In this document: piece after piece, positions 3,143 through 36,471 of the stretch | How positions within the stretch are numbered: the stretch's first letter is position 1 | Layout of the letters: each line of letters opens with the position of its first letter | Notes under the pieces: model-generated | What the model saw: the letters and a program-made list of their open reading frames with translations, nothing else | The model's database searches: none | Told to the model about the DNA's origin: nothing | Program-made: the position numbers and the translations under genes | Sequence record: PX418922.1 | Source: a phage | Length of the DNA: 64,000 nucleotides | Direction: 5' to 3' (one strand)

Positions 3143-5644
3143 ATGTCAACTACAATTACTAATTTACCCGAAACATCAAAAGTTAATGGTTCAGATTACC
3201 TGGTTTTAGATCAACCTGATAAAACTGTTAAAAGCACAGTTTCCAACTTTCTTACTGACACTGGGGTGGTTTTAGCCACCCAGTTGAAAGATACAGGTGG
3301 AGCAGATTTAATACAATCCTCAAATGGTAATACTGTTCAGGAAGAGTTGAATAACAATCTTCTTAATGATCGTGAACAGTGGCGTCGTAGTCTTGCTGAA
3401 GCGGGGTTAACACTTGTTGATGGTAGCTTTGAGGAGGGTGCTACATTAAATAATAATACTGATGCTGTTTGGTATATTGCAGGTGGACAGTGCTATACAT
3501 GGGGTGGTGCTTTCCCTAAAGAAGTTCCAGCTGGGTCAACCCCAGAAACATCTGGTGGCGTTGGTTCTGGGGCGTGGGTGAGCGTTGGTGATGCTAATTT
3601 AAGACAGGAATTAGCATCTTCATCTGGGTTTAAATTAATTGGTTCAGTATCTAATGTTACTCAATTAAGAACCATTACCGGTTCTGCTGGAGATAAAATA
3701 TTCCTCAAAGAATATAATACTGGTACCGGGAAAGGTGGGGGAATATTGACTGGTGTTAGCAGTCCGACACTGGTCGATGATGGCGTGAGCTTTTTCAGGG
3801 TTAACTCATCTTTTGGTTGGGCGCGAGATATATCTAAAGGTGTTAGCTTTTTTGATGGTGGTGTTATTGGTGATGCTGTTATTTCTGGTCCAAGTGTAAC
3901 TGGAACAGATGATACTGCCGCGGTTCTTCGCGTTTTTTCTGCCAGATTACCGATTAGGCAGAATACGCCGTTAAAAATGCGTCTAACGTCTTCTGTAACT
4001 TTAGGTAACGGTATTGTTGACTTGGTTGGTGCGGGGTCCACACATGTAGTATTTGTATTTGATCATTTGTCTGCCGGTTTAACTTTTGGCTCTGAGACTA
4101 ATTCGGAAACAAAATACCAGGGAACAGTGAAAGGCGTTTCTTGCGTTCGCCCTAACTACCTTGCATATGCTGGCTCAGCAGGTCCAAAATCTCTCTCATT
4201 TGGTAACTTCTCCCCTATTATTTTAGAAGACGTTAGAGAAGAAAACGCCATAGGATTTGGTATTTTCTTTGTATTCTGCCGGTCGGTCGTGGTTAGGAAA
4301 TGTTACGCCGGTAATCACGTCGGAACTTACTCTACCCCTAAATCTGGAACGGATGGCATCCATTTTTATAAATGTAACGACGTATGGGCCTACGATAATA
4401 TTTTAGAGGAAATCGGTGACGATGCGATATCATCAGGGTCATTTGATCCCCTGTTCCCTTGCTCAAATATAAACTTCATCAGGAATAAGATTTCAAGAGT
4501 GCACGGAAGTATGAAACTTTATAGTTTTGTGGACGGTGCGGAGATAGCCTATAACCGATTCCGCGTAGGTCATGAAGGAGGAGTTTATCTTACAAATGAT
4601 GCTAACTCTCTCGATAACTCTTATGTGAAGAATATAAAAATTCATCACAATGAGTTTTTTGATATTATTGGGAGTGAACCCAGTAATAACACATCTGGTG
4701 GCGTGCGTCTGAGATTCTGGCCTGATAATTCAGTACCAAATTCACGGGCAATTATAGACCAAATCTATATAACAGATAACCTAATTAGTGGCTGTGGCGC
4801 TGGCATTGCGGCAATAACACAGGATGCATACAAAAGATTTTCTAATATGTTCATTCGTAATAACTCGTTTCGTGCGGCACCACTCGATCTAACGGGTAGC
4901 AGGCCTTATATCCGCATACATCAATTTGATTATGAACTTGAGATTAGCGGAAATACAATGGTTAACTCGCATTCAGGGGGTATTGTTATAGATCAGGTCA
5001 ACGGCTCGGTTACCGCCACTTTTACGGCTCCAAAAGCTAAAATCAGCGGTAACACTATCGATGGGTACAGCCTGGCGTCAACGTTGGGCCAACTGGCAAA
5101 CGGTATTCTGGTTAGACCGTCTGATTACAATATCCTCTTAGAGATGGTAGGTAATCAGGTAAGGGGCCAGGCTATTAGTGATACCCTACCAGCAACACAA
5201 GGCATTTTGGTTAACAACGTTAGCCCACTGTCTTTTATTGAAGCAAACCAATCCGATAACAACATTGCTATCGGTGCAGGTTCTGCTGCCTATAAAGGTA
5301 TAGGTAAGACTAAGTTGGGAGCACCGAATGCTGGTACTCACTACGCTGGCAGTACCATTACTGATTATGTTGGTGGGAATCGTTACACTATCCTAACCAA
5401 CGGAACCTTTGGTACATTAAACGGTGTAACAGGTACTACTGTAGCCGGTAGTAAAACAGTTACTCTTAATAGCATAGCTGATGTGTATAGAGGTTGTGTT
5501 ATAGCTATAGCTGGTGTCTCTGGTAACAAACGTGTCTTGGATATACAAGGCACTACTATTAAGGTCGATGTAGCTTGTGACACTTCTGTATCAAACGGTG
5601 CAGTTAGCTACGTTGCCCCTACCTTTAGGACAGAAGCTATGTAA
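3143..5644 (+). CDS. tail fibre / tailspike-like protein
   Basis: 833-aa Gly/Ser/Thr/Asn-rich ORF; carries motif 'WYIAGGQCYTWGGAFPKEVPAGSTPETSGG..AWVSVG' (nt ~3464-3613) shared with two other fibre ORFs. Confidence 0.55.
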   Translation: MSTTITNLPETSKVNGSDYLVLDQPDKTVKSTVSNFLTDTGVVLATQLKDTGGADLIQSSNGNTVQEELNNNLLNDREQWRRSLAEAGLTLVDGSFEEGATLNNNTDAVWYIAGGQCYTWGGAFPKEVPAGSTPETSGGVGSGAWVSVGDANLRQELASSSGFKLIGSVSNVTQLRTITGSAGDKIFLKEYNTGTGKGGGILTGVSSPTLVDDGVSFFRVNSSFGWARDISKGVSFFDGGVIGDAVISGPSVTGTDDTAAVLRVFSARLPIRQNTPLKMRLTSSVTLGNGIVDLVGAGSTHVVFVFDHLSAGLTFGSETNSETKYQGTVKGVSCVRPNYLAYAGSAGPKSLSFGNFSPIILEDVREENAIGFGIFFVFCRSVVVRKCYAGNHVGTYSTPKSGTDGIHFYKCNDVWAYDNILEEIGDDAISSGSFDPLFPCSNINFIRNKISRVHGSMKLYSFVDGAEIAYNRFRVGHEGGVYLTNDANSLDNSYVKNIKIHHNEFFDIIGSEPSNNTSGGVRLRFWPDNSVPNSRAIIDQIYITDNLISGCGAGIAAITQDAYKRFSNMFIRNNSFRAAPLDLTGSRPYIRIHQFDYELEISGNTMVNSHSGGIVIDQVNGSVTATFTAPKAKISGNTIDGYSLASTLGQLANGILVRPSDYNILLEMVGNQVRGQAISDTLPATQGILVNNVSPLSFIEANQSDNNIAIGAGSAAYKGIGKTKLGAPNAGTHYAGSTITDYVGGNRYTILTNGTFGTLNGVTGTTVAGSKTVTLNSIADVYRGCVIAIAGVSGNKRVLDIQGTTIKVDVACDTSVSNGAVSYVAPTFRTEAM

Positions 5645-15506: not shown

Positions 15507-18182
15507 ATGTTTCCAATTCCAATATTTACTATTATGACCAGCACTGGTGTCGTTCCTCTGCCAGCAGGTATTGTTAAAAAAGTAATCACTTTAGATTACC
15601 CAGATAATGCTGGGAATTCTAATAGCAGTTTAGCAATTTTGCTTAATGATGGTAGATTGTTTACTCAAGGCGCAAACCTTTTTGGTGAGATTGCAGATGG
15701 AACTCGTAGTGCACGATTCAATAATTTCCACTTGGCTTCTACTGTAGTAGCGGATGTGTTTACCGCAGATCGTTGTTTTGTTATTAAAACTAACAGTGGA
15801 GGATGGCAATATTCAGGATTGACAGCAGGATTGGTAGGATCTATAGCAGCAGGTGGTACGGACGCATGTGTAACTACTTGGACCAGCTTTCCATCTGTAA
15901 TAACAGGGACTATCTCTTTAGCTAATCTTAAAGAGGTTAAGGGAGGATATAACAACACTCTCTGGTTAATGAATAGTGGTGTTCTTTATGGATCAGGTCA
16001 AAACACAGTAGGCAGTTTAGGTGCAAGTACTACTAACGAAGTTTCTACTCCTCGTCAGATAACAAGTGCAGCAGTTGCTTTTGATGCAGGTTACAACCAA
16101 TGCTCTTATGTCAACAATGTGGGAACCTTGCGTGTTTGTGGAGCTAGTAAAGGTTTAGCAGGTAATAATAACACAACAACAGCTTTTGTCAATGCTAAGA
16201 TATCCGCTACTGAAACAGTGTATGTCAAAGATTACATCAATACAGTTTCCCAGACAATAGTTGTAGGAGATACCTCCGGTGGCACGGGTACAGTAAACTA
16301 CTTATATGTTAGGTCTAATACAGAAACAACCTACACTAAACTGGATACCTTTGCAGCAGGTTTCTCAACATGGAAGTTTCCACCAAGCCGCCACTCTTTT
16401 TTCGTTGGGATCAATAATTCCTTGTGGGCTATTGGTAAGAACTACACTGCAAACTTAGGTTTGGGGTATGATTCTGCGAGCGGAGATCCACTCCAAGTGG
16501 GAAAACCAGTTAAACCTGAAGGAGTGGGTTCTTGGGATATAAACAAGCTCACAAGCGTTCATACGCTGAATATGGATGTTACTAACCAATTAGGTTATCA
16601 AGGAACCTTTTTCGTTTATAATGGAGATATGTATTATTCCGGTATTTGGAAAGATGGGAAAGCCTCGTATCTGTTCAATAGCGGTCTAAACTATAATAAA
16701 TTCACACCAATAGCAAGCTCCGTGATTACGGGTGATATTCTGGCAACTGGCTTAACTACAGATTCTTTAGGAATTTGTATTGTAGGTGGAACTAAACAGT
16801 TGACACATTCTGTTAGCCCAGAAGGAGGTAAACTTTTCAATATTAAATACACTTCTTCTGCCCCTGCAAACATGACAATATCATCTACTGGTTTAATGAC
16901 TTTCCATGCAGAAGGTGGTTTTGATGCAGGTATGACAGCCTTAAACGCTGAAGGAACAACTTTATCAGATACCTCTGGAGGATATGCTTCAACATTGAGT
17001 GTTTACACCCCTAGCTTATCTGCGATGGATGTAGGAACAACACAAACAATGGTAGCAGAAATAACGCCAACAGGAGCAGCAAGCTTACCTGGCATGGTTG
17101 TTGAGTATTTCTCTAATGACCCTACGGTAGCAACAGTTGACCCCGTTACAGGCGTTATTACAGCGGTTGCTGATGGAGGTTGTCGTATCGGTTGTAGAGC
17201 AACTTATCAAGGTGTGGTAACTGCCGAAGATAGTTCTTATCTCACAGTGAATGCTGTGGTGATTGTGATGGATTATGATTTGACGCAAGAAACTATTCCG
17301 GCGGATGTAAAGGTCAACAGGAGTAACCGTTATGCCAGGGCTTCTGGAGATATCCTTGTACCTACAGAGAGTTCTGCTCCCGTAGCACCTTTAGAATATG
17401 TTGGTACAACTCCACAAGGTAGACGTGTTGTAGCAGCCAACCGTACACATATCTTTATCAACAATAACTTGACAACAGCTTCCCCGTGGTTGAAGACGAA
17501 CTTGACAGTCACAGCATCAACAATCAACTCTCCGGTTGGAACTACGGCTAACACTTACAAGTTAACACCTTCTACAACTTCAGGACAACATATTTTATCA
17601 GCAGTGAATACAGCTTCTGATATTACAGCAGGTAAGCACTGGGCGGCATCCGTATTCTTGAAGCCAGATGGGATCACTAAAGTGAAACTCAAATTGACTT
17701 CAGGAGATGAGATTAACGAAGGGACTTATGATCTTGTAGCTGGAACATTTACAGGTGCAGATGCAAACATAATCGATATGGGGAATGGTTGGTATCGTGT
17801 AATTCTACACAAAGTGACAGTTGCCAAACAAGCATCTATAACCTATGAGATTATAGCTTTGAATGCAAGTGGATCAGACACTTTCGCAGGAGATGGTACG
17901 GCAGGTCTTATTGCTTGGGTTCCACAGCTTGAGATGGGGGATATGACAAATCCAGTTTGGGCGGGGACACCATTTGTTTGTTCTTATGCACGAGACACTA
18001 CCAGTGCTGTTACCTTCACTATTCCTAAGAATGGACATACTGGCGTGGACATTTACCACACTGATGGTACTGTGCAACGAGAGGTCTTCACTGGTACAGC
18101 TACAACTTGGATGTTGACGTTCACCGCCGCAAGTGCGGATTGGGGATCGAAGTTCATTACAGGTTTGAAATATTACGACTAA
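15507..18182 (+). CDS. tail fibre protein with Ig-like (Big_2-like) region
   Basis: 891-aa Thr/Ser/Gly-rich ORF; segment '..ATYQGVVTAEDSSYLTVNAVV' resembles bacterial Ig-like domains. Confidence 0.5.
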   Translation: MFPIPIFTIMTSTGVVPLPAGIVKKVITLDYPDNAGNSNSSLAILLNDGRLFTQGANLFGEIADGTRSARFNNFHLASTVVADVFTADRCFVIKTNSGGWQYSGLTAGLVGSIAAGGTDACVTTWTSFPSVITGTISLANLKEVKGGYNNTLWLMNSGVLYGSGQNTVGSLGASTTNEVSTPRQITSAAVAFDAGYNQCSYVNNVGTLRVCGASKGLAGNNNTTTAFVNAKISATETVYVKDYINTVSQTIVVGDTSGGTGTVNYLYVRSNTETTYTKLDTFAAGFSTWKFPPSRHSFFVGINNSLWAIGKNYTANLGLGYDSASGDPLQVGKPVKPEGVGSWDINKLTSVHTLNMDVTNQLGYQGTFFVYNGDMYYSGIWKDGKASYLFNSGLNYNKFTPIASSVITGDILATGLTTDSLGICIVGGTKQLTHSVSPEGGKLFNIKYTSSAPANMTISSTGLMTFHAEGGFDAGMTALNAEGTTLSDTSGGYASTLSVYTPSLSAMDVGTTQTMVAEITPTGAASLPGMVVEYFSNDPTVATVDPVTGVITAVADGGCRIGCRATYQGVVTAEDSSYLTVNAVVIVMDYDLTQETIPADVKVNRSNRYARASGDILVPTESSAPVAPLEYVGTTPQGRRVVAANRTHIFINNNLTTASPWLKTNLTVTASTINSPVGTTANTYKLTPSTTSGQHILSAVNTASDITAGKHWAASVFLKPDGITKVKLKLTSGDEINEGTYDLVAGTFTGADANIIDMGNGWYRVILHKVTVAKQASITYEIIALNASGSDTFAGDGTAGLIAWVPQLEMGDMTNPVWAGTPFVCSYARDTTSAVTFTIPKNGHTGVDIYHTDGTVQREVFTGTATTWMLTFTAASADWGSKFITGLKYYD

Positions 18183-19587: not shown

Positions 19588-20181
19588 TTACCAAGGAATA
19601 TCATCTTCTTCCAATCTGGTATCTACTTGAGGTGGACGTGGAACCTTAACCTCTTTCACAAAACGAAGATATGGGAAACGTGTAGCAATTTTAATAACAT
19701 GTTTGGCATCTTCTCTAACATCTTTGTGCAAGAAGCAGATCCCTGTTTCCAAGGTTGTTTCAAAATCTTTAGAATAATAACAGTCCTTCCCATCAAATGC
19801 AGCCTGGCAGATGGACAGATCGAACTCATTTAGAAAGGTTGTCATTACGCTTGGTTCCATAATCATAAGGTTGCAAAGCTGACCATCACGTTCAAACTCA
19901 AAAACGTGTTTAAGACCAGTAACACCTTCATAATTGTCAGAAGCCTCTTTGTTCCCTAGTTTACGAATATTGGTTCCCATTAAAGCAGATGCAATTAATC
20001 CTTGTATTTGTTCTTCAGTCCGATGTGCAGGAAGGGATGTATAGAAATCCAGATCACGTCCAGCAATATCAAGAATACGCCAATCACGAACAGCACCGCC
20101 AGCCAAGACAGAATTAGGATCAGCGATCTTTAATATGGTAAGAATTTCTTTGGCAATATTGATTTGTTTTGATTTAGTCAT
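19588..20181 (-). CDS. Pol-beta superfamily nucleotidyltransferase (CCA/poly(A) polymerase head-domain-like)
   Basis: 'GGAVRDWRILDIAGRDLD' matches GGAVRD..DxD motif of class II tRNA nucleotidyltransferase head domain; C-terminus 'EEDDIPW' resembles SSB tail. Confidence 0.5.
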   Translation of the reverse strand: MTKSKQINIAKEILTILKIADPNSVLAGGAVRDWRILDIAGRDLDFYTSLPAHRTEEQIQGLIASALMGTNIRKLGNKEASDNYEGVTGLKHVFEFERDGQLCNLMIMEPSVMTTFLNEFDLSICQAAFDGKDCYYSKDFETTLETGICFLHKDVREDAKHVIKIATRFPYLRFVKEVKVPRPPQVDTRLEEDDIPW

Positions 20182-24735: not shown

Positions 24736-26511
24736 TTAATAATTGCTATCCGTAGGCAAATTAGCAGGATTGTTGAAATACTGCTCTTTGTCATGCAGGG
24801 TTGCAGTTCTAATGTCATAGTAAAACTGCCCTGCCGGACCAGTTTCTGAGAACTCACGGTTTTTTAGGATAAAGCAATGAGTCGTATTGCGTTCTACAGG
24901 GTCTTCAGCGGCTTTATCTCGTTCCAAAGCCAAGGTAATACCAGCACCTTTAGCCAAGAAACTACTACCCATTGCATCGTCCTCTGTTAAGTGTTCATTG
25001 CCACCATTGGCCGATTTCTTAACGTGTGAGATGACAATAATAGTTATAGCATACTCTTTCATGATGCGCTTCAACCATGTTGCTAACTCTTCCTGGGCTT
25101 GAACATCCATACCAGAAAGCAAATCAGAATAAGGGTCGATAACAAGAATTGTTACTCCAAAATAGATGATCATCTCCAAAACTTTTTCTTTGATAGACTC
25201 CACATCTGCTCCACGATCATCACACACATAAAAACGTGGTGATCCATCTTCTCTTTCGTAAAAATCTAGGATTTTTTCTTTATTCTCTTCCAAGATTTGA
25301 AATTTCTCTTCCGGTGTTTTCCTGTGTAGAGGAATATGCAGGAACGAGGACAACAGGTTACGAGAATATTTCTTATAAGTTGCTTCCAAGGACAGAATAC
25401 CTAGGGTATGTTCTGGGTGCGCAACAATAATATGTTTGGTGATCTCGTTCACCATCAAAGTTTTACCGATACTGGTCTTTGCCAGGATAACTGTAATCTC
25501 TTCCTCTACTAAACCACCACCCAGCATATTTGCAGCAACACGCATAAAAGGAGGCAAGGTAATCATCTTGGATTCCAAGCATTCTAATGCGGCTTCATAC
25601 AAGACATTAGAAGCATAAACACCTGCTGGGGTGTATAGACGAGCACTCCAAAAAGCTTTTACGAAATCTTTTGCACGACCTTCTTCCAGATACTGATTGG
25701 CATCCTTAAGATCCATCTGCATACGATAGACTTTGTTACGAGGCAGCACCTTAACAATATTTTCAAATGCCTCATTACCTGCTTTGTCATTATCCATGCA
25801 AACAATAATCTTCTTAAATTTTTCAAAGAAAGGATATTGTGCCTGAACTTGTTTATACATACTGGTTTCACCAGTTGTGCCACTAACTACTGCTGGAAGT
25901 TCATACTTGTTGTCCAAGTTTTCAGATAGCATTTGATAAGCTGCCAGAGCATCGTGTTCACCACCTGTAATTACCACAGTATGAGAACGGTCTGCAAAAC
26001 GAATTTGTCCAAAAAGATCTACATCTTTACCTACTTGACCAATAGGTTTACTGAAATCTTTAGGATGAATACGACGCTTAAAACCAACCAATTCTTTACC
26101 GATAGTAGTTGGATATAAACAACTTTCTACTACCATCTGATCCCCTTCCTGACGGTATTCATAACGAACACCATAGAAAGATGAAACTTTTTCTTTAATG
26201 CCTCGATAACCACGTGGGTTGGTTGATGTTTCTTGAACAATTTTACGATGAATCTGTTTATTAAATTCCGAACCCACAATCTCCTCCTCTTCTAAAACTT
26301 CACCATTTTCTCGTAACCATTCTACGCTAGGAATAGTGTATTCACACGCAAAGCACTTAGCACCTTTATGCTCTCCATTAGAATCTAATCCATAAACCAT
26401 CAGGTTATTACGAGAGCGATCCTTGCCATTTTTCATGCAGCGCGGACAACCTGTATGCCCTTCCTTGCTAAGATCAACATCAAATCCATATTTAGTTATA
26501 ATGTGCGACAC
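24736..26511 (-). CDS. bifunctional DNA primase-helicase (T7 gp4-like)
   Basis: N-terminal Cys4 zinc finger 'CPRCM..CFACEY', central TOPRIM-like region, C-terminal Walker A 'TSIGKT'. Confidence 0.8.
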   Translation of the reverse strand: MSHIITKYGFDVDLSKEGHTGCPRCMKNGKDRSRNNLMVYGLDSNGEHKGAKCFACEYTIPSVEWLRENGEVLEEEEIVGSEFNKQIHRKIVQETSTNPRGYRGIKEKVSSFYGVRYEYRQEGDQMVVESCLYPTTIGKELVGFKRRIHPKDFSKPIGQVGKDVDLFGQIRFADRSHTVVITGGEHDALAAYQMLSENLDNKYELPAVVSGTTGETSMYKQVQAQYPFFEKFKKIIVCMDNDKAGNEAFENIVKVLPRNKVYRMQMDLKDANQYLEEGRAKDFVKAFWSARLYTPAGVYASNVLYEAALECLESKMITLPPFMRVAANMLGGGLVEEEITVILAKTSIGKTLMVNEITKHIIVAHPEHTLGILSLEATYKKYSRNLLSSFLHIPLHRKTPEEKFQILEENKEKILDFYEREDGSPRFYVCDDRGADVESIKEKVLEMIIYFGVTILVIDPYSDLLSGMDVQAQEELATWLKRIMKEYAITIIVISHVKKSANGGNEHLTEDDAMGSSFLAKGAGITLALERDKAAEDPVERNTTHCFILKNREFSETGPAGQFYYDIRTATLHDKEQYFNNPANLPTDSNY

Positions 26512-26523
26512 TTTGTTCTCCTG

Positions 26524-26802
26524 TTAAAATGGTTCGTTAGTCTCCATCATATATTCTGCTTCTAGTTCTTCCATGTGCTTTCTAAATTGGAAAGCAATTT
26601 CTGCTACAGTTACATTTAAATCTTTTTCAAAAACTTCTGTAGAGCCTTCATAAAAACGAATACCGTCAATTAAAAGCCCTCCGTGGTAATCCCAATCACT
26701 TTCACGAGAAAGCGGGTTAGGCTCTTCATAATAGTAATCCACCTCCACGACTAAAGCTTTCCCGTTACGAGTGGTGTATTCAAAATCAAAAGTGTTAATC
26801 AT
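26524..26802 (-). CDS. hypothetical protein
   Basis: 92-aa ORF. Confidence 0.4.
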   Translation of the reverse strand: MINTFDFEYTTRNGKALVVEVDYYYEEPNPLSRESDWDYHGGLLIDGIRFYEGSTEVFEKDLNVTVAEIAFQFRKHMEELEAEYMMETNEPF

Positions 26803-27746
26803 TATAGCTCCTCAAATAAAAGTCTACGACGCTCATTCAACACATCAATGTGATAATGAGTCCTGACATACTTAGCTAATGCTAATCCTTTCTCCATGCA
26901 AACATCGGGAGCACTTAATAAGTATTCCGTAATATCTTTCCACTCGGAAGGTGTTTCAGCAAAGAATAACAAATCTTTAAACTCTTGTGTATGATAATTC
27001 TCACGAGGAGAACAGATCAAAGGTAAACCCTTAGCACCTGCCTCAAGAATTTTAAGATTGCTTTTTGCATTATTAAACACGTTATCAAGCAATGGCGCAA
27101 GACTGATTTGATGACCATCGTAAGATTCCATGTAGTTGGCATATGGTCTTACACCTTCATAAACACAAGTTGGTGCTACATTTTCTCTGATCACAGACCA
27201 TTCACGACTACTTAAAACTTCAGAACCCCTACGAAAACCACATATTGTAAGATCTTTACCAAAATCGGGCAAGATAGCCAAATCTTGTTTATGTGTTTCA
27301 CTTCCAGCCCAGACTAATGGAGTTTTGGAGTAGCGATCACGGGTCAACACAAATTGACCTTCATCGTAAGGAAGACCATTAGGGATTATGTGCACATTAT
27401 CATTGTATTGTGAAAGTTCAACTTGCAAAGCAGGTGTCGTAGTTGTAACAAGATCGCTGTGCTCTAAAAACCATTTTAAATGTTCACGAATACCTGATTC
27501 AAAAATACCTTCTAACATGTGTCCTTTTGGAATAACTAAAGAGTCATCCAAATCCATAACCATTTTAAAGCCTAGGTTTTTAAGGGCTAAAAAGCCCTCT
27601 TTACCTTTTGTTGGCACTCCGTTAAAAACGAAAACGTTGTGTTTAGGTTGTGAAGAGAACTGCCTTGAGTAAGGCAGCACTACCCTATGGAAATCGCAGA
27701 CACTATAATTGATTCCATTACGATTGTCAAGAATTATTTGTCCCAT
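26802..27746 (-). CDS. glycosyltransferase-like protein (GT-B-like), paralog A
   Basis: 314-aa ORF; C-terminal 'NLKILEAGAKGLPLICS' resembles GT-B sugar-donor-binding region; paralogous to 27754-28701. Confidence 0.4.
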   Translation of the reverse strand: MGQIILDNRNGINYSVCDFHRVVLPYSRQFSSQPKHNVFVFNGVPTKGKEGFLALKNLGFKMVMDLDDSLVIPKGHMLEGIFESGIREHLKWFLEHSDLVTTTTPALQVELSQYNDNVHIIPNGLPYDEGQFVLTRDRYSKTPLVWAGSETHKQDLAILPDFGKDLTICGFRRGSEVLSSREWSVIRENVAPTCVYEGVRPYANYMESYDGHQISLAPLLDNVFNNAKSNLKILEAGAKGLPLICSPRENYHTQEFKDLLFFAETPSEWKDITEYLLSAPDVCMEKGLALAKYVRTHYHIDVLNERRRLLFEEL

Positions 27747-27753
27747 ACTTCAC

Positions 27754-28701
27754 CTACAAACTTTCAATAACCTGGCGTCGCAACTCGTTTGCATCTGCCA
27801 GATTATAATGTGTTCGAACATGTTCAGCCAAGAACAAGCCACGATCTTCCCGATAGTTTGGATTGCGAAGAAGCTTAACAATTTCGTAATGCCATTCTGC
27901 TTTATTCTCTGCGTAAGCAACAGCGCGAGCATCTACAGGGTTAAAATAAGGTAATACCTTAGAACAAACAATTGGAATACCTTTTGCTCCAGCTTCCAGG
28001 ATTTTGAGATTACTTTTACAATTATTAAAATCGTTATCTACCAAAGGAGCTATAGCAATAGCATGACTTTCGTAAACACTCATGTAATTATCTAAATCTT
28101 TTACAGCGGCTTTATATTTGGCATTTGGTAAATTTCTGCGAATCTTAATCCACTCTTGTCCCGTGATGCTTTGTGATGTTTCATATCCCGCAATAGTAAG
28201 AAGTTCATCATCGAAAGTATTAGAGACTAGTCGTAAGTCTGGTTCGTGACTAGCACCGCCAGCCCATACAACAGGGGTACCGGATGAACGATCATTTGAC
28301 AAAGTGAATTGTCCGCTATCAAAAGGAAGTGCATTTCGGATCACAACAACATTCCTATTTAAGTGACGGATCTTATATGCCAAATATTCCGTAGTCACAA
28401 TAACCACATCAGCAAGCTTAACCATAGCTACAATAGCATGAGTGTTTGACTCGTATAGACTTGCTAAATAATGTTCTGGATTAAGTTGGTAAAAATCATC
28501 TAAGTCTACAACAACCTTAACACCTTGACGTTTCAAAGATAAAACGTATTCTGCACCTTTAGAGTGGATACGGTTAAACACAACAACATCTTTCTTAGGT
28601 TGAATATTATTGTTGTTAAATGGTATAACAATACGATGATAGTCACAACCGCTGTGAGGTTTTGCATCAATTTTTAGTTTAGACCATTTTTTATTTGACA
28701 T
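27754..28701 (-). CDS. glycosyltransferase-like protein (GT-B-like), paralog B
   Basis: 315-aa ORF, 'NLKILEAGAKGIPIVCS'; clear paralogy with 26802-27746 over full length. Confidence 0.4.
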   Translation of the reverse strand: MSNKKWSKLKIDAKPHSGCDYHRIVIPFNNNNIQPKKDVVVFNRIHSKGAEYVLSLKRQGVKVVVDLDDFYQLNPEHYLASLYESNTHAIVAMVKLADVVIVTTEYLAYKIRHLNRNVVVIRNALPFDSGQFTLSNDRSSGTPVVWAGGASHEPDLRLVSNTFDDELLTIAGYETSQSITGQEWIKIRRNLPNAKYKAAVKDLDNYMSVYESHAIAIAPLVDNDFNNCKSNLKILEAGAKGIPIVCSKVLPYFNPVDARAVAYAENKAEWHYEIVKLLRNPNYREDRGLFLAEHVRTHYNLADANELRRQVIESL

Positions 28702-29374
28702 GTGCTAGTGCCTCCTCATAGGAAATTCGGATTTTCCCATTTTTAATATCCTCTAAAGATGCTTTATATTCTTCCCAGTTAATCCCAATAGCAGCCTCTT
28801 TCTCTTCTTTTGTCAGGTTAGCAAAAGGCATAGGATTGTTTCCAAAAACATCGTCTGGGTGGATATAAGCCATGATACGAAGTGGACAAGGTGTTGCCTG
28901 AATACCATGATTCAAACCAGCAGCTTGCAAACGGTGTCCCCATTCAGCATCTTCAAAACCATAACCGTGAGTGTAAGGACGGAAATAACCCATCTTCTCA
29001 ACAACGGAACGAGAATACATTGCAAATTGACACATTGCAAGTTCCCAGAGAATAACTTCTCCTTTGCTTCCAACAACTTTATCTTTGAAATACTCCGGCA
29101 TACCAAAGAAATCCCATCCTCCAGAGACAGCTTGATCTACAAAGTATGTTTCCCATCCCTCCATGACTGGGTAGCAATCATCGTCAAAAATAAACCAATA
29201 ATCATAACCTTCTTCATAAAACTGGTGCATAAGTTCATTCCTGGCATAAGCTACACCTTTACGATCTGGATCGTTGAATACTCGAAAATCTGCACGTGGA
29301 TCTGTTACAAGGTAGTCTTTAAGTGGACGGACACCTACAGTGATAACACCCACTCCGATTTTAATATTTTCCAT
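28691..29374 (-). CDS. glycosyltransferase (GT-A fold-like)
   Basis: 'FIFDDDCYP' DxD-type motif and 'GYGFEDAEWGHRL'. Confidence 0.45.
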   Translation of the reverse strand: MENIKIGVGVITVGVRPLKDYLVTDPRADFRVFNDPDRKGVAYARNELMHQFYEEGYDYWFIFDDDCYPVMEGWETYFVDQAVSGGWDFFGMPEYFKDKVVGSKGEVILWELAMCQFAMYSRSVVEKMGYFRPYTHGYGFEDAEWGHRLQAAGLNHGIQATPCPLRIMAYIHPDDVFGNNPMPFANLTKEEKEAAIGINWEEYKASLEDIKNGKIRISYEEALAHVK

Positions 29375-29382
29375 TTTCTCTC

Positions 29383-29946
29383 CTAAATAGTTTTACTGTG
29401 ATCATGACAGTGTAATAAATGATGTATAGACCGTTGAGGATCTGTTTGACCTAATCTGTAAATGTGAAACAGATACATTCCCCGCATCAATCCTAACCTC
29501 TTTCCTTTTTCATGTAAAGTGCGAGAGAAAATTAAGTCGAATTGGATAGATTTTTCTTCGAAAGGAATTTCATTCCACAATGATTTTCTAAAAAGCAAAA
29601 AGAAACCTGCCAGAGGTGTTCCGAAAGGAACTTCTTCAACACTTACTTTATGATATTCCCTTGCAATCTTAGCATATTCTATATGGTTTAGAATATCGGG
29701 ATCATCGTTAATTTGGTTAGAGAAAAGCTGATAACCACTACCTAACCTGTTACAAGTTGCACCTATTACATCAAAAGGCGGGTTTGACATAACAAGCTCT
29801 TCAAGCATAGATGGTTGATCAGGTAGGAGGAACATTGTATCGGTATCTCTTAAACACACCCAACTATCGTCTGGAAGAACGGCAATAGCTTCATTGATAG
29901 CCTTGCCGATATTTCCTGTCAGATAGGGAGTAATATAATAAATCAT
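29383..29946 (-). CDS. possible glycosyltransferase (GT-A-like) / hypothetical
   Basis: 187-aa ORF, 'CLRDTDTMF' DxD-like motif; weak. Confidence 0.3.
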   Translation of the reverse strand: MIYYITPYLTGNIGKAINEAIAVLPDDSWVCLRDTDTMFLLPDQPSMLEELVMSNPPFDVIGATCNRLGSGYQLFSNQINDDPDILNHIEYAKIAREYHKVSVEEVPFGTPLAGFFLLFRKSLWNEIPFEEKSIQFDLIFSRTLHEKGKRLGLMRGMYLFHIYRLGQTDPQRSIHHLLHCHDHSKTI

Positions 29947-29964
29947 TCTCCCCCCTCCGTTATA

Positions 29965-30156
29965 TTAACTGTCAGCTACAATCCCACGTTTAATCATTTC
30001 TTGTTGGATCTGAATCACACGATCTCGTGCTTCCATATATTCTTTAAAAGATTCTTGGAGATGGTCACGGGCTACGTCCCGTAGTTTAATCAGTTTGTCG
30101 TTTGTCACTTCTTGAAGAGAGATCTCGCCAGTTTCATTGGTCCCAAGCGTTTTCAT
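29965..30156 (-). CDS. hypothetical small protein
   Basis: 63-aa ORF. Confidence 0.3.
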   Translation of the reverse strand: MKTLGTNETGEISLQEVTNDKLIKLRDVARDHLQESFKEYMEARDRVIQIQQEMIKRGIVADS

Positions 30157-30412
30157 TTACAACCTCCTTAATAGCTACTGCACAGTTCTTACAAATACAT
30201 TGACCTTTGTTCTTAGAAATTTCAATGTAAGGTTCATTTTCGTTTTCTCCGCGTCGTGAGTCGTATATTACTGTATTGAAGCAGACAACGCAAATGTTTT
30301 TAATAACGACATATTTTTGCACTTTCTGTTTAGTGCGAAAATTGACTTCAATGACTTCTCCCATCAATGAATCTCCCCTAAAATGTTGTTTTGAGACATT
30401 ACTGCGGAGCAT
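30134..30412 (-). CDS. small Cys-rich protein
   Basis: 92-aa ORF with 'CVVC...CICKNC'. Confidence 0.35.
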   Translation of the reverse strand: MLRSNVSKQHFRGDSLMGEVIEVNFRTKQKVQKYVVIKNICVVCFNTVIYDSRRGENENEPYIEISKNKGQCICKNCAVAIKEVVNENAWDQ

Positions 30413-31270: not shown

Positions 31271-31873
31271 TTATGGACATTCATACCATTCTTTTTTACC
31301 ACCGAAGGCCATCACCACATCGCAAATATCCAGACCAGCTTTACCTACACCATATGCTTTCAGCTTCCATTCTCCATCTTCACGAACCAAGGAAGCCACG
31401 TGGCAGATTGTGTTACCAGCTACTTCAGGAGCCAGGAAGTCAAAATCCAGAATTTCCACATTGCGCTCGGAGTCGAAGATTTTAAGCATACCTTCAGAAG
31501 CATGACCAAAACGTTTCAGACCTGTATCATCATCAATGGTCAGAACAAAGGCAATCTCTTGTGCATCAGGAGAGATTTTAGCCAGAGTAATATCAATCTG
31601 CTCCATGCTGCCAGTGCCATCACGAACATCGTCACCAGCGAAGGTAGAACGTTCAGGATCAAACTTGTTAGCATAGCAAACAAGATGACGTGCAGACAGC
31701 ATTTCAGGATTGCCAGCGGCATTGTGACGACAAACCAGTGCACTTACATCCAGATCCAGTTTAGAATCAGACTTCCAAGAGAATTCCAGGCGCAGTTCTT
31801 TCAGAGCCGGAGCAACCTTCTTCAGGGAAATTTTTTCGCTAGAGCCTTTTTTCAGGGAAATTTTATCAGTCAT
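31271..31873 (-). CDS. terD: TerD-domain protein
   Basis: 'LDLDVSALV', 'GDDVRDGTGSMEQIDITL', 'IAFVLTIDD', 'VASLVREDGEWKLKAYGVG' match TerD family hallmarks. Confidence 0.7.
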   Translation of the reverse strand: MTDKISLKKGSSEKISLKKVAPALKELRLEFSWKSDSKLDLDVSALVCRHNAAGNPEMLSARHLVCYANKFDPERSTFAGDDVRDGTGSMEQIDITLAKISPDAQEIAFVLTIDDDTGLKRFGHASEGMLKIFDSERNVEILDFDFLAPEVAGNTICHVASLVREDGEWKLKAYGVGKAGLDICDVVMAFGGKKEWYECP

Positions 31874-31888
31874 CTTTTGTCTCCTCTA

Positions 31889-32158
31889 TTATTTAAGTGT
31901 AATACCAGTTACAGTCAATTCTACTTCCAAAAGCTTAGATGTGTTTTGGATTGATACTAATTGTGCATGATGGTTTAGTTCTACAGCAGAATAATCATTT
32001 TCCCCATCATCTACTTTTAAATAAACAATGATTTCACTAAGGTCTAAACCATTTTCGTCAAATGCATTTTCATAGACGAAAGTATCTCCTACATCCAAAT
32101 CTTTAATGGTAAGGCATCGTTTATTTACTTTTTGCTCATCAATTTCGAAGTTTAACAC
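31889..32158 (-). CDS. hypothetical small protein (paralog of 33180-33458)
   Basis: 'DLDVGDTFVYENAFDENGLD...VELTVTGITLK' vs paralog 'DLDVGATFMYYDAYEDAGLD...VDLEVTNITLK'. Confidence 0.4.
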   Translation of the reverse strand: MLNFEIDEQKVNKRCLTIKDLDVGDTFVYENAFDENGLDLSEIIVYLKVDDGENDYSAVELNHHAQLVSIQNTSKLLEVELTVTGITLK

Positions 32159-32387
32159 TTCTTCCTCCTAATGTTATCTCCGGTTTGTATATACGAAGAA
32201 TTATAGCATTTTCATTTTCTTTGTCAACCCATTCTTCATAATCAGGCCATACATGAATCTCTACTCTACTTACAATATCTTCCATTCGCACAGTCCCAAT
32301 GAAATACTCTTTGAGACTGCGCATAATGAAAGCTTCTCTCTCGCGCCAATAATTTTCTATGACTTGAGAGGCAAGCTCGTCGATCAT
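32139..32387 (-). CDS. hypothetical protein
   Basis: 82-aa ORF. Confidence 0.35.
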   Translation of the reverse strand: MIDELASQVIENYWREREAFIMRSLKEYFIGTVRMEDIVSRVEIHVWPDYEEWVDKENENAIILRIYKPEITLGGRSVKLRN

Positions 32388-33178
32388 TTTTTAGCACCTA
32401 CTTTAACAACCCACTCTCCGAACTCTTCAGATAAGAGTTTGTCATAAAGCTCTGAATCTGTCAAGTCTAAATCTTTAATGCCAATAAAACCAACATTATC
32501 ATAAGCATTTGCCAGTTCTTTCAGGAAGCCAAACTTCTCATTACCAACACCAACCATGAACCAATAAATAGGTTTATTCTTATTCTCTTCGATAAGACGA
32601 CGAACAGCACTAGGATCACCATTCTCACCATCCGTCTGGAAGAATACAACACCAGGGGTAATGTCAGCACCTGGTTCAGATACAGCTACAACTTTTTCAC
32701 GCTCTACAGACACTGTTTCAGTTTTACCAAGCAGACGATTAAAGAAGCCTTTCTTTGGAGCCTCCTCTTGTACCACTTGTTTAGTGGTAATATATTTAGT
32801 AACAGTGCCAAAATACTCATCGTAGATATCCGCCATTACAGGGGCGTAATTTGTTCCACCTCCGATACGAACATTACGCATACATTTACCAACATAGTCA
32901 TCGTAAACATCTGCTGTTGCTGGAGTAAGCTCTTGGGAACTCGTATTGAAGGCCCACATATCAATTTGTTGATTATCGTCGAACAGCATACCAAAAGGAA
33001 GCAGTTTACCTACAAAATCACTCACTACCCCATTAGAATATAGACCATGCATACTACCAGAAATATCTAGAGCACATGCTACACGAAGAACAATCTTACC
33101 TTCATTCAGGTTCTTATTCTTTTTCAGAGAGAAAGCAAGGTTTTCTTGACGTTTTTTCAGGCTGATTTTCTCGGACAT
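32384..33178 (-). CDS. von Willebrand factor A domain protein (TerY-like)
   Basis: MIDAS motif 'DISGSM', 'FFQTDGENGD'; N-terminus 'MSEKISLKK' echoes TerD N-terminus. Confidence 0.6.
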   Translation of the reverse strand: MSEKISLKKRQENLAFSLKKNKNLNEGKIVLRVACALDISGSMHGLYSNGVVSDFVGKLLPFGMLFDDNQQIDMWAFNTSSQELTPATADVYDDYVGKCMRNVRIGGGTNYAPVMADIYDEYFGTVTKYITTKQVVQEEAPKKGFFNRLLGKTETVSVEREKVVAVSEPGADITPGVVFFQTDGENGDPSAVRRLIEENKNKPIYWFMVGVGNEKFGFLKELANAYDNVGFIGIKDLDLTDSELYDKLLSEEFGEWVVKVGAKK

Positions 33179-33179
33179 A

Positions 33180-33458
33180 TTATTTCTCCTTCTTAAGTGT
33201 AATATTGGTAACTTCTAAATCTACTTCCACCATATTTGTATCTGGTGGGATGCAATGAGTATAGCCTCGTTGTGCTAGTGATCCATTAATACAGATCGCA
33301 CTGTTTGTGGAATTTTTAATGAACACCAAGTTACGGTAGGTATCCAACCCTGCGTCTTCATAGGCATCATAATACATGAATGTGGCCCCTACGTCAAGAT
33401 CTTCGAAAGCAATAGGTAAATCCTGACTTTTTTCTTCTTGAATATTGAATCTAAACAC
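33180..33458 (-). CDS. hypothetical small protein (paralog of 31889-32158); start inferred at GTG
   Basis: Track ORF is 33180-33524; RBS 'gaggagg' sits 5 nt upstream of in-frame GTG at 33456-33458, giving a length matching the paralog. Confidence 0.35.
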   Translation of the reverse strand: MFRFNIQEEKSQDLPIAFEDLDVGATFMYYDAYEDAGLDTYRNLVFIKNSTNSAICINGSLAQRGYTHCIPPDTNMVEVDLEVTNITLKKEK

Positions 33459-34014
33459 GCATACCTCCTCTACCAATTTTGAAGCCCAAATCGTAAGCTT
33501 CCTTGGTGATCTTTTGTAACTCACTTATAGGAAGTGTTACAAGAGGATCATCTTCTTCAATTTCCATCTTATCATCTTCTGTTTCAATGAGAGTATTATG
33601 CACTTTGTGATAAGGGTTGTCAACACGTTTAAACTTATTCTTTTCTGTGCTGAAAAAACAATCTGGATCTTCTTCGCCATCACCCCAACCTTGGTTAGGA
33701 TCTCCGTCAGATTGTTCTGTAGGGATTTCACCTGTAAAGTACTCTTCCAGCACCATAGCGATACCGTCCCTTGGATTTGAGGAATGCATCAAATCACAAA
33801 CCTTACCCCAATCCATAGCCCATTCGAACCGTTCACGAACGCCGTTTTCATCCTCCTTTCCAGAGAAAACACAACCATAACTATCATAGTTGCCATACAT
33901 CTCTTCAATAACAACACCGTCCTTCAAAAGAAAGAGATAACAAGGTGATCCGTCGAAAGAAGTAGAAAGGGCAGCTTTGCCCGATTCTTTGCACAAAAAG
34001 CTAAAACAACCCAT
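33451..34014 (-). CDS. hypothetical acidic protein
   Basis: 187-aa ORF. Confidence 0.4.
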   Translation of the reverse strand: MGCFSFLCKESGKAALSTSFDGSPCYLFLLKDGVVIEEMYGNYDSYGCVFSGKEDENGVRERFEWAMDWGKVCDLMHSSNPRDGIAMVLEEYFTGEIPTEQSDGDPNQGWGDGEEDPDCFFSTEKNKFKRVDNPYHKVHNTLIETEDDKMEIEEDDPLVTLPISELQKITKEAYDLGFKIGRGGMRV

Positions 34015-34412
34015 TACAAACCCTCCTTCAGATTATCAAGAGCTACAGTGGTTTCACAAAATTCTCCATAAGCTTTATGATGTTCCAGAAAAGCTTCGGG
34101 TCCACCCCAGTCATTATCTTGTGTATTCCAGCCATCAATAAAAGCATCTTCAATGATTGTGATCAGTTCCTGTCGAGTCAACGTAATGGTATCAGGTTTC
34201 TGCGTAGTTTCCACACGGAACCCTGGTTCTTCATAAAAACCTTTAGTTACAATGGATTCTAACTCTTCTGCATCACAGAGGAAGTAGCCACAAAGATAAC
34301 ACCAACCGTCACCATCTTTCATTACTTCATAAACTTCACCACTTGCTAACTTGGTGAAAAGAGTAGGGTCTGTTACTGTAAGTTTTAAAAGAATACCTGT
34401 TGGATTATACAT
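34014..34412 (-). CDS. hypothetical protein
   Basis: 132-aa ORF with RBS 'gaggagg' before ATG. Confidence 0.4.
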   Translation of the reverse strand: MYNPTGILLKLTVTDPTLFTKLASGEVYEVMKDGDGWCYLCGYFLCDAEELESIVTKGFYEEPGFRVETTQKPDTITLTRQELITIIEDAFIDGWNTQDNDWGGPEAFLEHHKAYGEFCETTVALDNLKEGL

Positions 34413-34578
34413 CTTCTTCCTCCTCTAAAATATGGAACCCGTAATTACAATAATCCTGAAAGGTTTCGTGCGCAAGATCTTCTATATCCTCTTGAGACAT
34501 ATCATCTTCAATTTCGATATCCACAACCTCATTGCATCCACACCAAGCAGTTTCAATATTCACTCGTAATATTTTCAT
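34405..34578 (-). CDS. small acidic Cys-containing ORF not in supplied track
   Basis: 57-codon ORF 'MKILRVNIETAWCGCNEVVDIEIEDD...' filling an otherwise empty gap, with overlapping stop/start at both ends. Confidence 0.3.
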   Translation of the reverse strand: MKILRVNIETAWCGCNEVVDIEIEDDMSQEDIEDLAHETFQDYCNYGFHILEEEEDV

Positions 34579-34775
34579 TACTCCTCCTCCTCATTGAAGT
34601 CAATATCTGCAAGGAGTTCGAATTTACGGAAGTTACGACAACCTTCATAAATATAACAATCACGACAAACTGCTAGAACACTTGGGGGATATATACCTCC
34701 CATCGGTGCGAATCGTTTTTCGTCATCATAACGGACACCAATGTCTTCATCAATTATATAGATACGGATTCTCAT
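34578..34775 (-). CDS. hypothetical small protein
   Basis: 65-aa ORF. Confidence 0.3.
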   Translation of the reverse strand: MRIRIYIIDEDIGVRYDDEKRFAPMGGIYPPSVLAVCRDCYIYEGCRNFRKFELLADIDFNEEEE

Positions 34776-35884
34776 TTACCAAGCCCTCGTTTCACAGCAG
34801 CTACCATCCCGTCTTCCAGAGATTGAACTTCATTAATATAATCAACACGAGCAGCACGGGCTTCCGTATTGATGCGGTTAGTTTCTTCCAACATCTTAAC
34901 CAAGTTTTCCTGATCGTGACGCAGAGTTTCAATATCCAACACTTGACGGTTAGCCAGTGCTGCTGCTTCGATCTGATTCTGTGTGGCAAGATCGCTACCC
35001 AGTTTAATTGCCAGGTTAAATTCATCAAGAACGTTATTCTGCGTCTCTGCTGCTTTCATTTGACGTAAGCTCTCGATATACATTGAGAAGTTAGCAGAGT
35101 AAGCAGGAATAACATTATTTACTATGTTACGCGCAGATCGCATTAAGCTTGCAGAAACTTTTTGCATACCTTGTACACGCGGTCCCATTTGGACACACAG
35201 TAGGCGCAATGCTTTTAAATCTGCAATACGAATCTCCAGAAGATCCAAAGTATCTCGGATCACTTGTCGCTGTTCTACTGCATCTTCTGGAAGAGCAGCC
35301 AAAGCTTGTTCTTCTTTTTCATAGGTTGTTGTTAGAAGCTGCATATCTCGGTTCAAACTTGCAGCATATTGTCCAATAGCTTGATGTAGCTTTTCAAGAT
35401 ATACCAAAGAATCTTCTTCTTTGCGAATATCCATTTGAAGGTTCTTTACCAACTCTTCAATACGGTTATTAACATTATCAAACTCCCCAAACAGGTCTTC
35501 TTTCATACCCATAACTTTTTTAATGAGTTTAGTAATACCCTTGCTTTGTTTAATAGAGTTTGGATCAAGTTGTTTTGCCTGTTTAATCAAAGCTGTGAGT
35601 CGTTCACTCATCTGATCGCCTTGATTACTACGTTGATGTTTTAATACCTCGGCATTCAAGGAACGCAAGGTTGTTCCTGCCTCTGCCCCAATCTCTTCGA
35701 TCTCTTGTCGGGTCATAGAAGGCAAAACTGGAACTTCTTGCGGTGCGGCTGGTGCATAAACAGGACTGGCATCTAACACGCTTGGAGCGAATACAGATTT
35801 ACTTGCATCTGTTGTTGCAGCAAATACGCTCATTTCAGGCTTCTTCTGACCGCCAGTAGCTGCTTTTAAAAATGGACTTGTCAT
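34772..35884 (-). CDS. TelA-like (toxic anion resistance family) coiled-coil protein
   Basis: 370-aa largely helical ORF of TelA-like size, located between TerD/vWA and TerC genes; assignment mainly contextual. Confidence 0.45.
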   Translation of the reverse strand: MTSPFLKAATGGQKKPEMSVFAATTDASKSVFAPSVLDASPVYAPAAPQEVPVLPSMTRQEIEEIGAEAGTTLRSLNAEVLKHQRSNQGDQMSERLTALIKQAKQLDPNSIKQSKGITKLIKKVMGMKEDLFGEFDNVNNRIEELVKNLQMDIRKEEDSLVYLEKLHQAIGQYAASLNRDMQLLTTTYEKEEQALAALPEDAVEQRQVIRDTLDLLEIRIADLKALRLLCVQMGPRVQGMQKVSASLMRSARNIVNNVIPAYSANFSMYIESLRQMKAAETQNNVLDEFNLAIKLGSDLATQNQIEAAALANRQVLDIETLRHDQENLVKMLEETNRINTEARAARVDYINEVQSLEDGMVAAVKRGLGK

Positions 35885-36471
35885 TCTTCATTCTCCTCTT
35901 CTGCATCTCTTATATATGGTGAAACACCGTACTCTTTAGCTACTTTAACCCAATCGTCCCATTTATACAACCATAATTTTCCTTCGGTCCCTTCTTTATC
36001 TGATTTCAACCACATATTAGGTTGCTTACCCGGGTACATGCGATTAGGTTTACGATTATAACCTCTAACACATCTTGTCGCAAACCTATCTACCAGAACA
36101 AGAACATATTTATACTCGTGGTTCAACGGCTCTTTGGAAGTGGCTTTAGGATTAGCCCCTAATTCTGCTGCCAGTTTTTGCCAATGAGCACCGTGCCTAC
36201 TAAACTTACCCATACAACCATCAATAGCATGAGCAATTTCGTGCTTCATTGTATCCACGATCATATCTCTTGTGGAGTTCTTATGCAAGTGCCAATTTAC
36301 AACAACAATTTTATCTCGGTAGTTGCACCAACCGAAAGAGTTATTCACTTTGTTTCTAACACAAGCTTTATATCCTGCTTCACGTAACATGTTGTAGTAA
36401 ACAGGAAAATCTTCTTTTATTTCCTGCATCACTTCCCACCACAAGAGTTGCAAGTCTCTCTCGGTATGCAT
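35881..36471 (-). CDS. SprT-like zinc metallopeptidase-like protein
   Basis: 'MKHEIAHAIDG...RHGAHW' HExxH motif in SprT-like context. Confidence 0.45.
   Translation of the reverse strand: MHTERDLQLLWWEVMQEIKEDFPVYYNMLREAGYKACVRNKVNNSFGWCNYRDKIVVVNWHLHKNSTRDMIVDTMKHEIAHAIDGCMGKFSRHGAHWQKLAAELGANPKATSKEPLNHEYKYVLVLVDRFATRCVRGYNRKPNRMYPGKQPNMWLKSDKEGTEGKLWLYKWDDWVKVAKEYGVSPYIRDAEEENEE

Follow-up and report, generated by a model that had tools for sequence, protein, structure and literature searches.

The window analyzed here is a 64,000-nucleotide (nt) stretch of phage DNA (sequence record PX418922.1), and our subject is a set of four genes on its minus strand, spanning positions 26802 to 29946, that form one operon of glycosyltransferases (GTs). 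The segment from 26500 to 30200 is 95 to 99.5% identical to the corresponding region of 65 sequenced Phapecoctavirus genomes (phAPEC8-like phages, Stephanstirmvirinae); the closest is phage SKA64 (99.5%), and phage tuntematon shares 99.3%, which assigns the window to this genus. RefSeq lists these genes in tuntematon as gp113 to gp116, each already named "glycosyltransferase," and the cluster as a sequence feature is thus in the public record. In transcriptional order, the first gene (29383 to 29946) encodes a 187-amino-acid (aa) GT of the GT-A fold (phrog_14179), the second (28691 to 29374) a 227-aa GT-A-fold enzyme of GT2/GT7/GT27-like type (phrog_2456), the third (27754 to 28701) a 315-aa GT4-like enzyme of the GT-B fold (phrog_7162), and the fourth (26802 to 27746) a 314-aa paralog of the third. 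The genes are packed as in an operon: the gaps are 7 and 8 nt, the second gene overlaps the third by 11 nt, and the next open reading frame (ORF) is overlapped by 1 nt.

All four proteins match glycosyltransferase-annotated PHROG families end to end (E = 1e-78 to 1e-148), while an NCBIfam search returned no match for any of them. The coordinates of the ORF list were confirmed, so that the four-gene cluster proposed by an earlier reading made from the sequence alone (the sequence-only reading) stands, as does its description of the flanks: the operon lies among genes for a primase-helicase, PolA, a SleB-type endolysin, TerD, vWA-TerF, and TelA, and a methyltransferase with an NPPF motif is 2.6 kb away (about 3 kb had been claimed). 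The small flanking ORFs at 26524 to 26802, 29965 to 30156, and 30134 to 30412 are conserved in large myoviruses only; they do not travel with the GT genes and were excluded as operon parts. None of the four proteins contains a hydrophobic segment (the maximum 19-aa Kyte-Doolittle mean is ≤1.65) or a membrane-spanning segment, and all four are predicted to be soluble and cytoplasmic. A promoter and terminator scan found 29 promoter-like sites compared to 21.2 ± 4.7 in shuffled sequences, which is not above chance, and the scan therefore does not define the transcription unit. One near-consensus sigma-70-like promoter (TTGACA, 17 nt, TATAGT; 11 of 12 positions match) is present at 27702 to 27730 of the minus strand, just inside the 5′ end of the fourth gene, and may be a chance occurrence.

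The third and fourth gene products are 41% identical. The product of the third gene gives the strongest PHROG match of the set (E = 1e-148) and falls just under the Pfam cut-offs for Glyco_trans_1_4 and Glyco_trans_1_2, and the product of the fourth gene scores 25.1 bits against Glyco_trans_1_2, for which the cut-off is 25. The family profile matches the solved GT4 enzymes TreT (E = 2.6e-4), BshA, and MshA, and PF13524 is precomputed on most homologs. Together, the models of the C-terminal Rossmann domain and the solved enzymes place both proteins among GT4-like GT-B glycosyltransferases. The family of the third gene conserves the motif KSNLKILEAGAKG, which appears to resemble the nucleotide-sugar-binding helix of GT4 enzymes, and the product of the fourth gene keeps all family-invariant residues. 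Related gene clusters elsewhere (Serratia prophage, phiTE-like, and P22-like) encode a single GT-B, which is 40 to 52% identical to the product of the third gene and 35 to 39% identical to that of the fourth. Since the single enzymes are nearer to the third gene, we consider the third gene the ancestral-type copy and the fourth a derived, lineage-specific tandem duplicate of Phapecoctavirus and phi92-like phages; among the loci scanned, two GT-B copies are confined to those of the Stephanstirmvirinae type.

The two GT-A proteins have no detectable relationship on direct comparison. The family of the first gene has an invariant RDxDT (DxD) motif, at 29836 to 29850 in the window, and that of the second has invariant FDDD (29177 to 29188) and YGxED motifs (YGFED in the window, 28946 to 28963). 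Pfam gave only subthreshold matches for the 227-aa protein and none for the 187-aa protein, and PDB searches with single sequences and profiles of both families returned nothing credible. Both families were resolved by predicted structures only. Each structure consists of one Rossmann-like alpha/beta/alpha domain and resembles solved GT-A enzymes, with GlfT2, K4CP, TarP/TarS, RmlT, SpsA, AvpGT, SunS, and ppGalNAc-T among the neighbors. Profile hidden Markov models (HMMs), profile comparisons, and structures, the last of these predicted for the GT-A proteins, thus agree with the fold calls made earlier, namely, two GT-B paralogs and two GT-A proteins with DxD motifs. The best profile and structural matches of the operon are bacterial enzymes of families GT4 and GT2/GT7/GT27. 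The window proteins have the DxD and ED catalytic motifs in common with these enzymes, as well as the C-terminal nucleotide-sugar-binding helix of GT4 type; they differ in identity (10 to 17%) and in being minimal, single-domain proteins of 187 to 315 aa.

We searched protein, viral-contig, and genome collections for the same genes and found that the operon is a lineage-expanded copy of a mobile cassette, recurrent in phages unrelated to one another and composed of the 187-aa GT-A, the 227-aa GT-A, and the GT4-like GT-B, the last of which is duplicated here. The three families are phage restricted, with a few dozen to hundreds of clusters located almost entirely on viral contigs. All four genes are also present in EmilieFrey (Bas61) and PaulScherrer, with amino-acid identities of 67 to 77%. 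An HK97-type prophage of Serratia sp. M24T3 has homologs of all three core members (187-aa GT-A, 227-aa GT-A, and GT-B) with their order preserved (hhalign E = 3.5e-60 and 2.9e-54; GT-B identity of 38 to 51%), between holin/endolysin/spanin genes and an HNH-TerS-TerL-HK97 capsid-portal module. A 45.8-kb P22/Sf6-like contig has the GT-B and a 227-aa-type GT-A between TerL and the portal gene, and adjacent GT-A/GT-B pairs occur in Pseudomonas prophages and several small viral contigs. Pfam annotation of 125 neighboring ORFs at eight small-phage or prophage loci identified, as the most frequent families, portal proteins (4), prohead DUF2213 proteins (3), terminases (3), antiterminator Q (2), and cement proteins (2). 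The wider GT-B family is present on at least 565 IMG/VR contigs, and at 16 representative loci its commonest neighbors were TerS/TerL subunits, hexapeptide acyltransferases, GT2 enzymes, and TylF-type sugar O-methyltransferases.

In phiTE-like large myoviruses, the cassette is directly upstream of the primase-helicase and PolA genes, as in the window. The sequence-only reading had taken this location among replication genes as a clue to function. Because the cassette of small phages and prophages adjoins genes for terminase, portal, and capsid proteins, an association with replication is not inherent in it, and the clue does not hold: the position is synteny inherited within the rV5/phiTE/phAPEC8 supergroup. 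The composition of the cassette also varies. One phiTE-like lineage (contigs L009 and L010) has duplicated the 227-aa-type GT-A and not the GT-B, and duplication of different members in different lineages is as expected for a diversifying glycan. On L009, a CapR/DUF723 homing-endonuclease-like gene (4849 to 5532) is located between the duplicated GT-As and the GT-B. On three IMG/VR contigs (L018 to L020) whose GT-B is 75% identical to that of the window, the 187-aa GT-A abuts two GT-B paralogs and no GT-A of the 227-aa type was detected on the contig by HMM scan; Klebsiella phage KP13-26 has its 227-aa and 187-aa homologs dispersed to distant positions. These arrangements indicate that cassette composition is fluid even within the subfamily.

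A few records have unexpected host labels. Three Campylobacter-phage records (MG065656, MG065639, and MG065689) contain cassette genes as similar to those of the window as the genes of phi92 are (67 to 76%), the 187-aa protein of OP562383, labeled an Acinetobacter phage, shows 99.5% amino-acid identity, and records labeled as Pseudomonas phages also bear Phapecoctavirus- or phi92-like cassette genes. This pattern suggests database contamination or mislabeled hosts.

With respect to the acceptor, the sequence-only reading proposed that the enzymes glycosylate modified DNA bases as protection from restriction. For this to be so, a base would have to be hydroxylated by an unrecognized enzyme, or DNA would have to be glycosylated sparsely and sequence specifically, as a counter-defense. 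In its favor, the cassette adjoins the primase-helicase and PolA genes in all rV5/phiTE-like large myoviruses examined, 11 of 17 members of the 227-aa family give weak matches to Pfam TAGT (best E = 1e-4), and the 227-aa protein matches the PHROG of the T-even beta-glucosyl-HMC (HMC, hydroxymethylcytosine) alpha-glucosyltransferase (E = 8e-6). The R...DDD...ED motifs of the 227-aa GT-A are like those of DNA-modifying GT-As, and GTs paired with epimerases are found in DNA pathways (10.1101/2023.12.21.572611). Rhamnosylation of hydroxymethylated nucleotides was speculated on by Olsen et al. (PMC7552041). The TAGT match of the window's 227-aa protein, however, scores 19.4 bits against a cut-off of 27.5 and covers only residues 32 to 68, around the DDD motif. 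TAGT membership was rejected, as all matches in the family were below the cut-off and covered approximately 37 residues and hhalign gave a probability of 1% against T6 TAGT; homology of the GT-B proteins to the T4-type DNA glucosyltransferases was likewise rejected (hhalign 2% for beta-GT and 0.9% for alpha-GT). When predicted structures of viral proteins were searched with Foldseek, the matches were all GT2-like proteins with generic names, and no T-even DNA GT was among the best 50. The T-even enzymes (T4 alpha-GT of GT72, T4 beta-GT of GT63, and T2/T6 TAGT) are likewise phage GT-B or GT-A proteins encoded among replication genes, but beyond the local likeness around the DDD motif they share only the generic fold with the window proteins (hhalign 0.9 to 2%), and they work with a deoxycytidine monophosphate (dCMP) hydroxymethylase partner that is missing here. 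The 227-aa family is uniformly acidic (isoelectric point [pI] of 4.7 to 5.3); pI as a proxy for DNA binding was dropped, since T4 alpha-GT is acidic too (pI 6.1).

Known glycosylation of phage DNA requires a hydroxylated base, which is produced by a ThyA-like hydroxymethylase or by a C5-methyltransferase (C5-MTase) plus a TET/JBP dioxygenase; phage DNA GTs normally cluster with genes for these enzymes, and GT contigs without such neighbors were rated less likely to be DNA modifying (10.1101/2023.12.21.572611). tblastn searches with T4 gp42 (a ThyA-like hydroxymethylase) and with the T4 DNA GTs gave no match in the window, the complete genome of tuntematon, or >100 cassette loci, which bears out the earlier statement that no base-hydroxymethylase is visible in the window and extends it. 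The complete tuntematon genome contains ThyX and no annotated hydroxymethylase, and Pfam analysis of ten candidate genes identified ThyX, NT5C, and MazG-like domains and no TET/JBP or ThyA domain. Among the 25 families listed for each neighbor scan there was no TET or ThyS family, and the scan of the 125 ORFs at the eight small-phage and prophage loci likewise listed no thymidylate-synthase-like, TET, or DNA-methylase neighbor; at the 16 GT-B loci, a C5 DNA methylase occurred only twice. A recognizable base-activating enzyme, on which DNA hypermodification would depend, is thus lacking, and small temperate phages carry the cassette without an adjacent base-modifying gene. The phage DNA GTs associated with 5mYOX enzymes (Burke et al., 10.1101/2023.12.21.572611) resemble the cassette in mixing GT-A and GT-B proteins, sometimes with an epimerase, in using several sequential GTs, in their GT-A R...DDD...ED motifs, and in having TarP as a structural neighbor; the difference is that no C5-MTase, TET, or ThyS-like gene is adjacent here.

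Several methyltransferase annotations deserve comment. Three tuntematon genes outside the window are called "DNA methyltransferase" in RefSeq. Of these, gp211, annotated as "Dcm," has no methylase domain and no other Pfam match, gp229 likewise has no Pfam match, and gp161, which is beside the portal gene, matches the XkdF-type prohead serine protease. All three names are doubtful (coordinates in our extracted loci, L003:30604-31083 and L004:22892-23575 and 15972-16481). On the P22-like contig, an Nmad5 gene (L012:16754-17359, minus strand) lies in the structural module on the opposite strand, approximately 5 kb from the GTs, and is the only neighbor with a DNA-modification flavor seen at the small-phage loci.

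Published restriction data also bear on DNA as the acceptor. In the ESCO collection, HincII cut every phage except ESCO10, ESCO47, and ESCO58 (PMC10269720). The collection includes three Tevenvirinae genomes, with ESCO47 and ESCO58 named as Dhakavirus and Tequatrovirus (PMC10269720), and ESCO10 is presumably the third. Phapecoctavirus isolates ESCO5, ESCO25, and ESCO37 and phi92-like isolates ESCO8, ESCO9, and ESCO32 are outside the refractory trio and are therefore HincII digestible (PMC10269720); these isolates appear among our cassette matches. Likewise, the "Vequintavirinae and relatives," including the phi92-like phages Bas60 to Bas62, were described by Maffei et al. as "exceptionally susceptible" to restriction-modification systems "despite a putative dTDP glycosylation machinery" (PMC8594841), and Bas60 to Bas62 bear the orthologous cassette. 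With no base-activating enzyme or T-even GT homolog, with DNA that HincII cuts, with restriction-sensitive relatives, and with a replication link that reflects lineage synteny, the proposal that the operon protects DNA from restriction has little support. An acceptor other than DNA is most likely, and we regard DNA glycosylation as improbable. What weight it keeps falls mostly on sparse or chemically novel modifications that would be invisible as restriction resistance; sparse or sequence-specific glycosylation of DNA in the absence of any known base-activating enzyme is very unlikely.

The sugar donors can be approached from gene content. RmlB, RmlA, RmlC, and RmlD, which constitute the deoxythymidine diphosphate (dTDP)-L-rhamnose pathway, are encoded approximately 45 kb away, outside the window; Olsen et al. 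called the presence of this pathway in these phages "peculiar" (PMC7552041). In two phiTE-like lineages an RmlB-like 4,6-dehydratase gene is inserted between the two GT-A genes, and a related cluster adjoins a DegT-type sugar aminotransferase gene. The embedded dehydratase, the DegT neighbor, and the phage Rml genes tie the cassette to nucleoside diphosphate (NDP)-6-deoxyhexose donors. The likely donors are thus NDP-6-deoxyhexoses, particularly dTDP-L-rhamnose, which would be supplied by phage RmlBACD or by host enzymes.

The explanation that we rank first, and that the sequence-only reading had not raised, is glycosylation of virion proteins. We tentatively propose that virion proteins receive from the operon's enzymes a short glycan, which probably contains rhamnose, with dTDP-rhamnose from phage RmlABCD. 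The enzymes would act in sequence, each adding one sugar from a nucleotide-sugar donor, to give a short oligosaccharide of three or four residues on one or more phage virion proteins; the result would be a glycan coat comparable to the one reported for F1 mycobacteriophages. The presence of three or four GTs together with sugar-tailoring partners points to stepwise synthesis of a short heteroglycan and not to addition of a single regulatory sugar.

Two lines of evidence make virion glycosylation our first choice, namely, the recurrent position of the cassette by head and packaging genes and the homology of the 227-aa GT-A to mycobacteriophage enzymes. The 227-aa protein is a near-full-length homolog of the N-terminal GT-A domain of the 478-aa proteins PMC gp100 and Rita gp101 (195 of 227 columns aligned; hhalign probability of 99.3% and E = 4e-20 for PMC gp100 and 99.2% and E = 1e-19 for Rita gp101), and in tblastn searches it matched >330 mycobacteriophage records. 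The PMC gp100 and Rita gp101 genes are located near the right end of the genome, in the place that gp108 has in Che8. Che8 and Rita (cluster F1) are reported to have glycans on their major capsid proteins (PMC11256854). The F1 locus (Che8 gp108 to gp110, PMC gp100/gp103, and Rita gp101/gp103) and the window operon both comprise multiple genes for soluble phage GTs with no membrane component. They differ in that the hosts here are Gram negative and that Che8's three GTs are not significantly similar to the window proteins. At the level of fold only, there is also a likeness to capsid glycosylation by chlorovirus PBCV-1 (A64R and others), a eukaryotic giant virus.

A number of points weigh against this explanation. 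Direct comparison with Che8 gp108 to gp110 gave a best E value of 8e-4, which is at best marginal, and the mycobacteriophage link therefore rests on the PMC/Rita-type enzyme and not on Che8's own. The identity between the GT-A domains is approximately 28%, a level that does not fix the acceptor, and the 187-aa GT-A and GT-B families have no detectable counterpart in Rita. No acceptor signature or Ser/Thr-rich tail was found in the capsid, decoration, sheath, tube, and tail proteins of tuntematon and the cassette-bearing small phages, a result that is uninformative. There is no report of glycosylated virion proteins for any phage of this group, and our literature search turned up no work on these genes by nucleoside mass spectrometry, glycoproteomics, or genetics. 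The acceptors of GT4 and GT2 enzymes are more often lipid-linked compounds or polysaccharides. The orientation of the operon in large myoviruses is that of the replication genes and not that of the structural genes. Finally, ESCO37 lacks rmlA and rmlB, yet it keeps the four GTs, which shows that phage Rml genes are not obligatory for the cassette. E. coli has its own enzymes for the rmlA and rmlB steps.

The main alternative, which the sequence-only reading had raised and which we consider a serious though less likely one, is that the operon modifies a host envelope glycan. The enzymes would act at the inner membrane face on undecaprenyl-linked intermediates or on the lipopolysaccharide (LPS) core, so that O-antigen, the ECA/NGR glycan (ECA, enterobacterial common antigen), colanic acid, or capsule would be altered or diverted during infection; the purposes could be receptor masking, superinfection exclusion, or keeping progeny from adsorbing to debris. 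The nearest solved relatives (GlfT2, K4CP, TarP/TarS, RmlT, SpsA, and AvpGT, together with TreT/BshA/MshA) are polysaccharide or glycolipid enzymes, and rhamnose, for which the phage encodes the Rml enzymes, is a typical O-antigen sugar. The primary receptor of these phages is a wecB-dependent surface glycan (PMC8594841; PMC11990801), and an envelope role was proposed by the authors of the ZCKP1 genome (PMC6141743). Weighing on the other side, all four proteins lack membrane segments and signal peptides, and the phages with the cassette are strictly lytic or, if prophages, have it in their late (lysis/terminase) region, where expression is normally shut off during lysogeny; moreover, a lytic cycle leaves little time for remodeled glycans to reach the surface. 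Known phage seroconversion systems consist of membrane Gtr-type proteins and are found in temperate phages, near the integrase. A system of this kind (GtrA, GtrB, and GtrC type) was rejected for the window operon, whose proteins have no hydrophobic segment and no Gtr-family match in Pfam or PHROG.

The predicted solubility of the enzymes would also fit another type of acceptor, such as a host protein or a nonstructural phage protein, modified for host takeover or anti-defense, or a small molecule or RNA. The location of the operon in an early/middle-type gene block of large myoviruses and the presence of SunS and ppGalNAc-T among the structural neighbors are in line with this, and there are known examples of protein-modifying GT-A enzymes from bacteria and phages. 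We nevertheless think such acceptors unlikely: three or four sequential GTs plus tailoring enzymes suggest a multisugar structural glycan and not a single regulatory sugar, and the recurrent position by head and packaging genes in small phages would be left unexplained.

Glycosylation of virion proteins, which we continue to rank first, may extend to the cassette as a whole. We suggest, still more tentatively, that the operon is the coliphage member of a widespread mobile virion-glycosylation cassette, distributed among phages of Enterobacterales, Pseudomonas, and Bacteroidota, that places a short rhamnose-type glycan on capsid or tail proteins. What is new here is the definition of a mobile three-gene cassette, its separation from the replication genes, the link to 6-deoxyhexoses, and the homology to a GT of phages with glycosylated capsids. 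If a virion glycan is indeed built by these phages, the complete dTDP-rhamnose pathway that two papers noted as puzzling would be explained, and the virions of phAPEC8- and phi92-like phages would be the first glycosylated ones to be described apart from those of actinophages and giant viruses. The host ranges of Phapecoctavirus and phi92-like phages are very broad, and these phages have repeatedly been proposed for therapy against pathogenic E. coli and Klebsiella; a phage-built virion glycan could affect antibody recognition, clearance, and stability, as reported for glycosylated mycobacteriophages. Annotators and studies of defense systems should not assume glycosylated DNA in these phages. 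The cassette beside terminase genes, often together with an NDP-sugar dehydratase, aminotransferase, acetyltransferase, or O-methyltransferase gene, could serve as a marker for candidate glycosylated phages in metagenomes.

Two further features of the window were noted. The ORF at 19588 to 20181 (minus strand), called tRNA nucleotidyltransferase/poly(A) polymerase in relatives, has no Pfam match at E ≤ 0.001, and its name is weakly based. Directly downstream of the endolysin gene is a tellurite-resistance-like stress cluster (31271 to 36471, minus strand). It includes, all on the minus strand, genes for TerD (31271 to 31873), a vWA-TerF-like protein (32384 to 33178), TelA (34772 to 35884), and an SprT-like metalloprotease (35881 to 36471), and according to the tuntematon annotation, a TerC gene lies further along.

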